A stretch of DNA of 32,517 nucleotides from Deltaproteobacteria bacterium (GTDB lineage Bacteria; Desulfobacterota; Dissulfuribacteria; Dissulfuribacterales; UBA3076), in NCBI GenBank assembly GCA_030605675.1, contig JAUWHV010000124.1, positions 1 to 32,517 of the forward strand. The letters are read 5' to 3'. Positions 3,072 through 32,517 of the stretch are shown here, in pieces. The stretch's first letter is position 1; every line of letters begins with the position of its first letter. Position numbers and translations under genes: made by a program. A model generated the notes under the pieces. It had not been told where the DNA came from, did no database searches, and saw only the letters and a program-made list of their open reading frames with translations.

Positions 3072-3276
3072 AGCATCCTTCATGGCAAGCCAAAAGTAGT
3101 TTACACTTTGTTCATCCTGTACTTTGGTAGTGAAATTTGAAATTAGAAACTTGAAATTAGAGCTGATTAATCCAGTTTTTATCCAATTTCCAATTTCCAG
3201 TTTCGGCATCCAGCATTCGATTTTATAATACACCCTTTTTGGGAATAAGTATAAACCGGCGAATGAAGGATGCCTA
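3072..3276. mobile_element. MITE-like non-coding element: inverted GCATCCTTCA boxes enclosing a GAAATT tandem-repeat hairpin
   Basis: Left box at 3072-3110, and an inverted diverged box at 3248-3276 (rc aggcatccttcattcgccggtttatactt). The repeat arms lie at 3131-3162 and 3181-3204. There is no ORF inside. Confidence 0.5.
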
Positions 3277-7211: not shown

Positions 7212-7354
7212 AGGCATCCTTCATTTTGTAGTTTACACTTTTTCAACATAGACGGATACCACCATTAGCTGTTAGCTGTTAGCTATTAGGTAAAAACTTT
7301 GTATAAAAACGGACTGTTAAGCTAAAAGCTAACGGCTAAAAGCTAATAGCTAAT
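7212..7354. repeat. Conserved box plus inverted TTAGCTG / GCTAA tandem-repeat arms
   Basis: The box aggcatccttcattttgtagtttacacttttt lies at 7212-7243. The left arm (7264-7289) is attagctgttagctgttagctattag. The right arm (7318-7354) is its imperfect complement, with 22 of 26 positions pairing. Confidence 0.6.
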
Positions 7355-8305: not shown

Positions 8306-8418
8306 ATTGAGGGATTGAGGGATTGAGGGATTGAATGTACTGTAATGATTATAAATTAGGAATTGCAAATTGAGAGATTGAAAATATTCATCGATTTAAA
8401 TTCCTCAATTCCTAAATC
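8306..8418. repeat. GAGGGATT x3 tandem octamers with degenerate copies and an inverted arm
   Basis: Three perfect GAGGGATT units at 8309-8332. Degenerate same-sense units follow at 8355-8386. The complementary arm aaattcctcaattcctaaatc is at 8398-8418. Confidence 0.6.
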
Positions 8419-31079: not shown

Positions 31080-31184
31080 AACTTCCTCCTTTTTATGATA
31101 ATCAGTAAACCCACATATCTTGGCATTTAATTGCTTGGTTGTTCATATAGACGATGGGCATTCTTTTTGTCAACCCTGTTTACA

Positions 31185-31459
31185 AAATATTCGGCATCCT
31201 TCATTTTGTAGGTTACACTTTTTTCAAAGGTAACTATTCAGGTTGAAGGTTGAAGGCTGAAGACTGAAGTACTTCAACCATCTCGCAATGATCGAACAGA
31301 GATGAATCCCCCAAACTAATACTGCAATCTCGTCAGCCAACTCAAATGCCCGCAGTTATGTGTGATTCACGCATGATTTGTCCCTATTGGCCTTCTACCT
31401 TCAGTCTATTCACCTGATTACAACTACTTTTGACTTGTCGTGAAGGATGCCCGATATTC
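31185..31459. mobile_element. MITE-like element: inverted GGCATCCTTCA boxes enclosing GAAGGY repeat arms, overlapping a gene 3' end
   Basis: The left end (31185-31224) includes ggcatccttcattttgtaggttacactttttt. The repeat arms lie at 31240-31279 and 31389-31407. The right end (31424-31459) is an inverted box (rc ggcatccttcacgacaagtcaaaagtag), and its 28-nt box core (31424-31451) matches 24 of 28 nt of 3072-3099. Confidence 0.55.
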
Positions 31460-32517
31460 GATAGCGATCTTAACCAGGCGGGTGGCCCATTCAGGGCGCT
31501 CAAGGGCGTGGATGTGGGTATAGGTTCCAAAGATATTTTTAAACACTATTCCTTCAAGTTGTCCGTCAAAGCCATGCCCCCTTACTACACGGCAGCTTAG
31601 TTTGCCTGATTTTTCTTTGTCCACCAGGACCGGTCTGGAGTAATGAAATTCATGGCCCCGTAATATTGTCCCTACATCATAAAAGGGATTCTGAGAGATA
31701 ACTTCAAGGGCGCTGTAACCGTGACCGACCGGCTTTTCACCAACAACAAAATCCCAACCAATGGCCCCTGCCATAGGATAGGTCCGTCCTTGCCAGACAA
31801 GTTGCCTGCCCAGATACATCAGGCCTCCGCACTCTGCATAGACAGGAAGTCCCTGATGTATAGCCTGATAGAGATCCCTTCTCATGGCTTCATTAGCTGA
31901 GAGGCGGGCAGCCTGTGTTTCAGGGAACCCCCCTCCTATATATAGTGCATCGAGTTCCGGCAATCCGCCACCTTGAAGGGAATCCAGGAATATGAGTTTT
32001 GCCCCGGCTTTCTCTAGGGCTTCAAGGTTTTCAGGGTAATAGAATTGAAAGGCCCCATCCTGGAGCACTCCTACAAGAGGCGTTTGTGACAAAGGGATTT
32101 CTTCTGCACCAGGAAATAATTCCATGGCATCCATACTGCCGAACTTCCATTCCCCGCTCTGATCAGCGATCTTTGCTAATGTATGGATATCCACTGACTC
32201 TGTCACCATCCGGCCTAGCCGGTCCAGGGCTTCGGCGGCCTGTGGGTGTTCTTCCCACGGAGTTACACCAAGATGGCGCATGGGGATAGGATCACCTTTC
32301 ATCCTTGGCAGGGCACCGAGTACGGAAATGCCTGTGTACTTTTCCACAGATTGCCTGACAATTGTTTCATGGCGCGATCCGGCTACATGGTTGAGTATCA
32401 CTCCCTCAATACGAAGTTCCGGATCAAGCCTCTGACAGCCCAGGACAAGGGCCGCGGCTGTCCTTGTCATTTTGGTGCAGTCCAAAACCAGAACAACAGG
32501 GGCATCTATCCACTTGG
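31424..32517 (-). CDS. Second cobyrinate a,c-diamide synthase-family amidotransferase (CbiA/DsrN-like), N-terminus off the window
   Basis: The reading frame stays open to the window edge (...KWIDAPVVLVLDCTKMTRTAAA...). It has a GATase domain (YAECGGLMYL, GHEFHYS). It is a paralogue of the gene at 25729-27222. Confidence 0.8.
   Translation of the reverse strand, partial: KWIDAPVVLVLDCTKMTRTAAALVLGCQRLDPELRIEGVILNHVAGSRHETIVRQSVEKYTGISVLGALPRMKGDPIPMRHLGVTPWEEHPQAAEALDRLGRMVTESVDIHTLAKIADQSGEWKFGSMDAMELFPGAEEIPLSQTPLVGVLQDGAFQFYYPENLEALEKAGAKLIFLDSLQGGGLPELDALYIGGGFPETQAARLSANEAMRRDLYQAIHQGLPVYAECGGLMYLGRQLVWQGRTYPMAGAIGWDFVVGEKPVGHGYSALEVISQNPFYDVGTILRGHEFHYSRPVLVDKEKSGKLSCRVVRGHGFDGQLEGIVFKNIFGTYTHIHALERPEWATRLVKIAIEYRASFTTSQK

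Follow-up and report, generated by a model that had tools for sequence, protein, structure and literature searches.

Genes and repeats at the locus

The window, i.e. the whole stretch of 32,517 nt analysed here, is contig C79 of G000, a MAG of 1.66 Mb in 179 contigs that belongs to Seep-SRB2 (Ca. Desulfomithrium, GTDB g__UBA3076, order Dissulfuribacterales; PMC10553843). Genomes, contigs and loci are cited below by G, C and L numbers, respectively. A cbiA/cobB-family gene runs on the minus strand off the right edge of the window, with the C-terminus ...IAIEYRASFTTSQK / ...LVKIAIEYRASFTTSQK before the stop codon, and is followed by a 4Fe-4S ferredoxin gene and, between the two, by the repeat element under study (Table 1). 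The order radical-SAM gene, cbiA, ferredoxin, ribF is syntenic, also around alleles that carry no element. On profile score the product is assigned to the CbiA/CobB cobyrinate a,c-diamide synthase family: it matched TIGR00379 with 304.3 bits against a cut-off of 261.4 (residues 1–351 of 363; model positions 107–447 of 449), and the PF07685 GATase_3 domain covers residues 148–340 (E 1e-36). A search for a solved structure of a close CbiA returned distant GATase domains only.

The conserved block that lies between the element and the ferredoxin gene probably serves as promoter region for the latter, and it was not flagged by the promoter consensus scan. In the element-free allele L010, a different repeat (GTAACCGTTCACG...) occupies the cbiA-ferredoxin spacer (L010:3544-3727), and this spacer seems to have received insertions more than once.

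Table 1. Features of the window, listed by position, and PF05635 genes elsewhere in G000.
Feature	Position	Strand	Remarks
Second complete MITE copy	3072–3274		GAAATTN-type hairpin core; perfect 8-bp duplication TATGATTT
One-ended copy	7213–7354	+	a-type box, then TTAGCTG-type hairpin; no second box
Ferredoxin gene, 4Fe-4S, 63 aa	30888–31079	-	3′ of cbiA; syntenic in all related loci; Fer4 Pfam on orthologues
Conserved block GGGTTGACAAAAAGAATGCCCATCGTCTATATGAAC	31141–31176	-	just past the MITE; invariant in a five-locus alignment; holds TTGACA
Distal flank AAATATTC (gene orientation GAATATTT)	31185–31192	+	6/8 direct-repeat match to gene-side flank
MITE, whole	31193–31451		259 bp repeat to repeat; only ORF trace a 10-codon frameshifted remnant
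Distal terminal inverted repeat GGCATCCTTCA	31193–31203	+	exact complement at 31441–31451
a-type end, subterminal segment TTTTGTAGGTTACACTTTTTTCAAAG	31204–31229	+	matches window 7224–7243 and many a-type ends genome-wide
Nested core, gutted PF05635 cassette	31230–31423	-	own inverted termini GTAACTATTCAGG / CCTGATTACAAC
GAAGGY heptamer arms of the core	31240–31279 and 31389–31407		frameshifted ORF remnant from ATG at 31374
c-type end, subterminal segment CGACAAGTCAAAAGTAG	31424–31440	-	encodes ..TTSQK and TAG (31424–31426)
Gene-side terminal inverted repeat GGCATCCTTCA	31441–31451	-	read (CG)G GCA TCC TTC A..
Native codons GAA TAT CG- (E, Y, first two bases of R)	31452–31459	-	gene-side flank; target-duplication-like copy GAATATCG
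cbiA/cobB-family gene (cobyrinate a,c-diamide synthase family)	31424–32517	-	5′ part lost at contig end; terminus ...IAIEYR followed by ASFTTSQK and stop
PF05635 (23S-rRNA-IVS / bAvd-like) genes	G000:C147:11884-12198, C173:6608-6712, C146:10565-10774, C1:5-300		

Structure of the element

The initial annotation placed the ends of the element at two 19-nt inverted repeats (31185–31203 and 31441–31459), with GAAGGY repeats and a complementary distal arm between them. The two 19-nt ends do form inverted repeats, with 16 of 19 positions matching, which none of 100 shuffles of the window reproduced; the conserved terminus, in turn, is limited to the 11 nt on the inner side, GGCATCCTTCA. The remaining 8 nt on the outside (AAATATTC / CGATATTC) are flanking target DNA, matching at 6/8 as a direct repeat versus 5/8 as an inverted repeat. 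The right end lies inside the coding sequence; its inner 11 nt (31441–31451) belong to the element, and its outer 8 nt are native codons. The DNA that follows the distal flank is homologous to the native spacer found in element-free alleles, (C)AATATTTCAT..AAAC.

The internal repeats were recovered as GAAGGTT, GAAGGCT and GAAGACT units at 31245–31265, and the distal arm at 31389–31407 pairs with the GAAGGY arm at -31 kcal/mol. The RNA of the whole element has a predicted fold of -88 kcal/mol (z = -4.5) and would form a long hairpin between cbiA and the ferredoxin gene; a scan of the element for terminator and promoter consensus sequences found no intrinsic terminator and no minus-strand promoter. 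The c-type end, GGCATCCTTCAcgacaagtcaaaagtag(tttacac), from which the cbiA stop codon is read, occurs at seven other sites of the genome outside cbiA, with close variants at about six more.

A genus-restricted MITE family

In the 1.66-Mb G000, GGCATCCTTCA is present in 60 exact copies, against 0.8 expected, and these run into a few recurring subterminal types, mostly with GTTTACAC. When 21 inverted pairs, 69–580 bp apart, were compared for target duplications, the 8-bp flanks were identical at 6/8 or more positions in 13 and perfect in seven, while shuffled partners (2000 trials) averaged 1.3 and never exceeded 6; the flanks of the cbiA copy itself match at 6/8. The terminus-plus-GTTTACAC pattern was found in 17/17 genomes of the genus (1–85 hits each); 13 genomes representing other genera of the same family and order had no hit, and the reversed control pattern gave zero hits. 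Copy number, 8-bp duplications and distribution thus make the element a MITE that is confined to one genus, has terminal inverted repeats of 11 bp and duplicates 8 bp of its target.

The 8-bp duplications rule out a REP/BIME/REPIN (RAYT) reading, and no GGCATCCTTCA lies closer than 600 nt to the only Y1_Tnp hit (C179). Rfam returned no family match, only sroH at 15 bits versus a gathering score of 80. No autonomous IS was found in G000 among inverted pairs 0.6–4 kb apart, MAGs being often without assembled IS copies, and none of thirteen ISL3, IS1595 and DDE_Tnp_1 loci from G010, G002 and G016, in a neighbourhood check for terminal repeats that covered five genomes, was flanked by GGCATCCTTCA repeats. 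A 711-bp '+/-' pair in G002, considered as a composite element, proved to consist of two distinct elements, one on either side of a gene for a small membrane protein; at this locus (L095, G002:C44:3983-4693) the gene is VanZ-like and lies between an a-type one-ended box and a complete MITE. The literature search found no paper joining Seep-SRB2 with a transposase.

Many contigs of the MAG start or end less than about 200 nt from a MITE copy (C24:193, C40:209, C42:92, C65:186, C87:10, C92:9, C146:124), and the family is probably the cause of much of the fragmentation of the G000 assembly.

The core of the element

Three core types were distinguished at the cbiA site: a GAAATTN-hairpin (L019, L006, L022, L023), a diverged form of this hairpin (L003, L004, L018), and the type of the window, shared with L007 and L009. 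In the last, all that lies between ...AAAAGTAGTT and CTTTGAAAAAAGTG is a different repeat, bounded by GTAACTATTCAGG and CCTGAATAGTTAC and with GAAGGY arms. The core of L007 and L009 reads MRDHTKL(Q/R)AFELADEIAVLV followed by stop, and at this place the window carries one inserted nucleotide. In G017, which belongs to the same genus, a full-length copy of 118 aa (L058:1511-1867) shares the start and the arms and matches PF05635 with an E-value of 1.1e-33; about 25–30 gutted copies of this cassette were counted in G000. Of the cassette, the window core retains the arms and both ends of the ORF, and the 20-aa ORF remnant had no Pfam hit by itself. On these similarities, the window core is a nested, gutted copy of a cassette for a PF05635 (23S-rRNA-IVS four-helix-bundle) protein.

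The other PF05635 genes of G000 each lie between inverted tandem arrays of their own 7–8-mer, the flanking units being GATTGAGG, GGTTAGC, GAGTTAAGA and GAAATTG-type, with GAAGGY at L058. This bracketing by inverted heptamer or octamer arrays suggests that the hairpin cores of the MITE family in general may be remnants of PF05635 cassettes. Heptamer and octamer hairpins elsewhere in the window (e.g. at 8306, 12353 and 22903) may likewise be such remnants.

The junction of gene and element

According to the initial annotation, the element supplied the last 11 codons and the stop of the cbiA-family gene. This stands for the eight codons of ASFTTSQK and the TAG, and the element also gives the third base of the Arg codon. 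The preceding E-Y-R is native, since element-free orthologues have it too: GAATATCG(C) is present in the element-free alleles L001, L008, L012, L015 and L084.

When the protein was aligned with its orthologues, as the initial annotation had proposed, similarity stopped directly after ...IAIEYR. Beyond this point the element-free orthologues (86–96% identity) continue into unrelated native tails. After ...IAIEY(R) these are HVKLQGRCQNLRRLF in L001/L002, RVKSQGKYQNIRKLF in L015, the RTKSQGTC type in L008, L012 and L084/85, HLKSHIGLWK in L079/80/86, longer variants in L011 and L078, and other tails in L020 and more distant proteins. The tails of the ASFTTSQK type, in turn, are those of the window, L006, L022, L007/L076, L009/L077, L019, L023, L018, L003/L017/L082/L083 and L004/L005/L016/L081. 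Each of these loci has the element in its DNA, with GGCATCCTTCA directly after GAATATCG, and no orthologue without the element ends in EYRASFTTSQK. The earlier suggestion that an insertion replaced the native 3′ end was thus right.

The element-free allele that was sought at the same syntenic locus was found. It reads GAATATCGC, then CAC GTA AAA ... TTA TTT TGA and GCAATTTATCAAAACGGGGTTGACA, and the filled allele reads GAATATCG, the element (GGCATCCTTCACGACAAGTCAAAAGTAG ... TGAAGGATGCC), and GAATATTTTGTAAACAGGGTTGACA. The insertion point falls exactly where conservation of the CbiA family ends, as the TIGR00379 match stops at residue 351 of 363.

The lost native tail and the probable order of events

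In filled alleles, the DNA past the distal repeat, (A/G)AATATTT(C/T).., aligns with the native spacer ...AAGC, AATATTTCATGAAAAC of the empty alleles. About 52 nt, comprising the native tail, its stop and a few bases of spacer, are missing from every filled allele.

It is very probable that insertion of the MITE made the new tail and stop of cbiA, in an old event followed by the deletion of about 52 nt and an exchange of the core, with a neutral tail as the outcome. The 259-bp element would have inserted directly after the ...IAIEYR codons, at the end of the conserved core of the enzyme, so that a ribosome reading its c-type end adds A-S-F-T-T-S-Q-K and stops at the TAG of the element, and the native tail of 8–21 residues would thereby be cut off from translation. 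Two steps would account for the filled allele: first cut-and-paste insertion of the ordinary kind, in which the 8 bp GAATATCG were duplicated, and later a deletion running from the AATAT of the duplicate to the native AATAT 52 nt downstream. Later, in the subgroup of the window, the core would have been swapped for the gutted PF05635 cassette. Insertion followed by deletion is the most likely order, which we infer indirectly because an intermediate allele, with the element and a retained native cbiA tail, was found at none of 32 loci (21 from genomes and 11 from metagenomes).

A second gene offers a parallel. The V-ATPase subunit D genes (loci L087, L093) of G000 (C41:7112-7771, minus strand; PF01813 at residues 12–202 of 212) and of G017 end in ...KKS followed by ASFIAGQK and stop, read from the same frame of the c-type end, and the DNA of the native tail (ATGAGGACAT..GACGAT.AAGG) is retained behind the element. 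In element-free relatives the protein ends in ...KKSRKMRTYRR. Judged from these sequences, V-ATPase D is a model of the first step, the insertion, without the second, the deletion. The V-ATPase D genes of G005 and G010 have a possible short in-frame scar (ATSNPKKGH...). Other ORFs that run into element ends (C8, C91, C108, C112, C153) have odd composition and look spurious; those of C8, C91 and C108 had no Pfam hit.

Both junctions at cbiA, from gene to element and from element to ferredoxin, are identical in numerous assemblies made independently, from different samples and with different pipelines (L003, L004, L007, L009, L016–L019, L023, L076, L077, L081–L083). A misjoin of the MAG contig at a repeat is accordingly a most improbable explanation of the window, even though repeats do break the G000 assembly, several contigs end in element copies, and two loci, L006 and L022, both in assemblies of about 1x coverage, lose synteny directly after the element. 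The locus may have been rearranged there, or the assembly may be chimeric at the repeat. The same two contigs, labelled 'Promethearchaeota archaeon' (L006, JAIWHJ010000310.1) and 'archaeon' (L022, JAIWFS010000031.1), carry a cbiA 98% identical to the Seep-SRB2 gene and are for that reason probably mis-binned bacterial contigs.

Age of the insertion and history of the alleles

The same junctions are common to at least ten distinct related Seep-SRB2 genomes. Identities for the upstream flank, the MITE and the downstream flank were 95.3, 94.8 and 94.5% between the window and L007, 92.6, 91.1 and 93.9% between the window and L009, 92.7, 90.4 and 93.1% between L007 and L009, and 82.7, 73 and 85.3% between L019 and L003. 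Since the element diverges in step with its flanks, the cbiA insertion is old and the copy long inherited at its site.

Polarity is given by the basal L001, L015 and L020 and by more distant homologues, all of which are without the element, and by the many occurrences of the c-type end at other sites of the genome. In the upstream tree (1065 nt, rooted on L020), the empty L001 and L015 are at the base, and a clade of the filled alleles plus the scar allele L013 is not rejected (p-AU 0.11). The tree of the 1.4-kb downstream flank rejects a single clade of element-bearing alleles (p-AU 2.7e-5), and therefore one insertion with purely vertical descent is insufficient. The window is also 96–97% identical to the empty L008 on both flanks. 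As the filled alleles share identical junctions, orientation and deletion, there was probably one founding event, after which the filled or the empty allele moved between close species by homologous recombination.

The conflict of the trees and the closeness of the window to the element-free L008 could also be read as repeated insertion of the MITE into a hot spot, independently in separate Seep-SRB2 lineages, in place of one old event; the three core types at the cbiA site and the different repeat in the same spacer of L010 point in the same direction. Recurrent insertion is unlikely, however, in the light of what the filled alleles have in common: all share the left junction, the orientation, the c-type end, the right flank (A/G)AATATTT and the 52-nt loss. 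Moreover, divergence of the MITE tracks that of the flanks, one clade is not rejected by the upstream tree, and homologous recombination between close species is the simpler account of the tree conflict. Recurrent insertion is thus the weaker alternative to a founding event with recombination.

A broader reading, which we regard as tentative, takes the MITE-made and the native tail as two alleles of an old presence/absence polymorphism that homologous recombination spreads among Seep-SRB2 species, and the hairpin cores as gutted PF05635 cassettes that can be exchanged in place; if true, it would link two classes of mobile DNA.

Variation of the tail

Next to ASFTTSQK, the variants SSFTTSQK, ASFTTGQK, ASLTTGQK and ESFTTS followed by stop were seen, which correspond to the changes A>S, S>G, F>L, A>E and Q>stop. 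At L013 a deletion scar (GAATAT, AAGGATGAC, AAATATTTCAT) retains a remnant of the distal repeat only, and the ORF therefore reads 26 codons into the spacer. In an AlphaFold model of a full-length, tail-bearing homologue (P0002; mean pLDDT 92), the last helix (453–474) extends through A-S-F at high confidence, and the last five residues drop to 62. As the predicted helix reaches A-S-F, the tail may not be wholly disordered.

This helix, the persistence of the tail through species-level divergence and the use of the same frame of the same end by V-ATPase D would fit a selected, functional C-terminus, with the element domesticated as coding sequence. The record of changes makes such a role distinctly improbable: most of those in the eight codons are non-synonymous, one creates a premature stop, in one case the tail is lost altogether, and the native tails of relatives are likewise unconserved in both length and sequence. 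In addition, each of the three frames that can be read from the c-type end meets a stop after at most about 22 codons, which makes a short tail the default expectation. The other option of the initial annotation, that the box is tolerated as coding sequence, found no support if selected coding sequence is meant, as the tail drifts and one lineage has lost it. Because the native tail that it replaced is naturally variable and non-conserved, the new tail is probably neutral.

Comparison with known systems

The event at cbiA is real, well supported and of an ordinary kind. No new mechanism is called for, as MITE-derived gene ends are already documented, e.g. in Coxiella (PMC5896051). What the locus provides is a clean natural series of a mobile repeat rewriting a C-terminus, with empty, filled, core-swapped and scarred states, across an uncultured genus of methane-seep syntrophs (sulfate reducers). 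For annotators, the point is that in some Seep-SRB2 genomes the element supplies the last residues of two proteins, the cbiA-family protein and V-ATPase subunit D; copies of the repeat are also shown to break these MAG assemblies.

With prokaryotic MITEs the element shares its short, non-coding sequence, terminal inverted repeats, target duplications, a copy number in the tens per genome and its restriction to one genus. It differs in that conservation is confined to the ends, the cores being interchangeable hairpin modules, in the presence of several subterminal types (a–d) and one-ended copies, and in that no parent IS with matching ends was found. Like PF05635 cassettes, the core of the window retains heptamer arms, the first 20 codons and the last codons; unlike them, it is gutted and frameshifted and lies inside another MITE instead of in rRNA.

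Rickettsia palindromic elements (RPEs) are translated in full inside ORFs. As in these, a palindromic repeat here enters a coding frame and the gene is not destroyed, but translation passes through only eight codons of the element before the TAG, and a new end takes the place of the native one, so that the element falls outside the RPE class, in which the whole element is translated.

The QMITE1 and QMITE2 elements of Coxiella burnetii overlap the 3′ ends of genes, e.g. pntAA (42 bp) and nagZ (50 bp), and form stable stems in mRNA (PMC5896051); in strain Dugway the last 33 residues of enhC come from QMITE2 (Wachter et al. 2018, PMC5896051). On the level of the phenomenon the Seep-SRB2 element is comparable, since in both cases a small element bounded by inverted repeats reaches into the 3′ end of a working gene, whereas host phylum and terminal repeats are unrelated. 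Unlike in Coxiella, the empty, filled and scar alleles across species here directly show the polarity and age of the insertion and the loss of the native tail.
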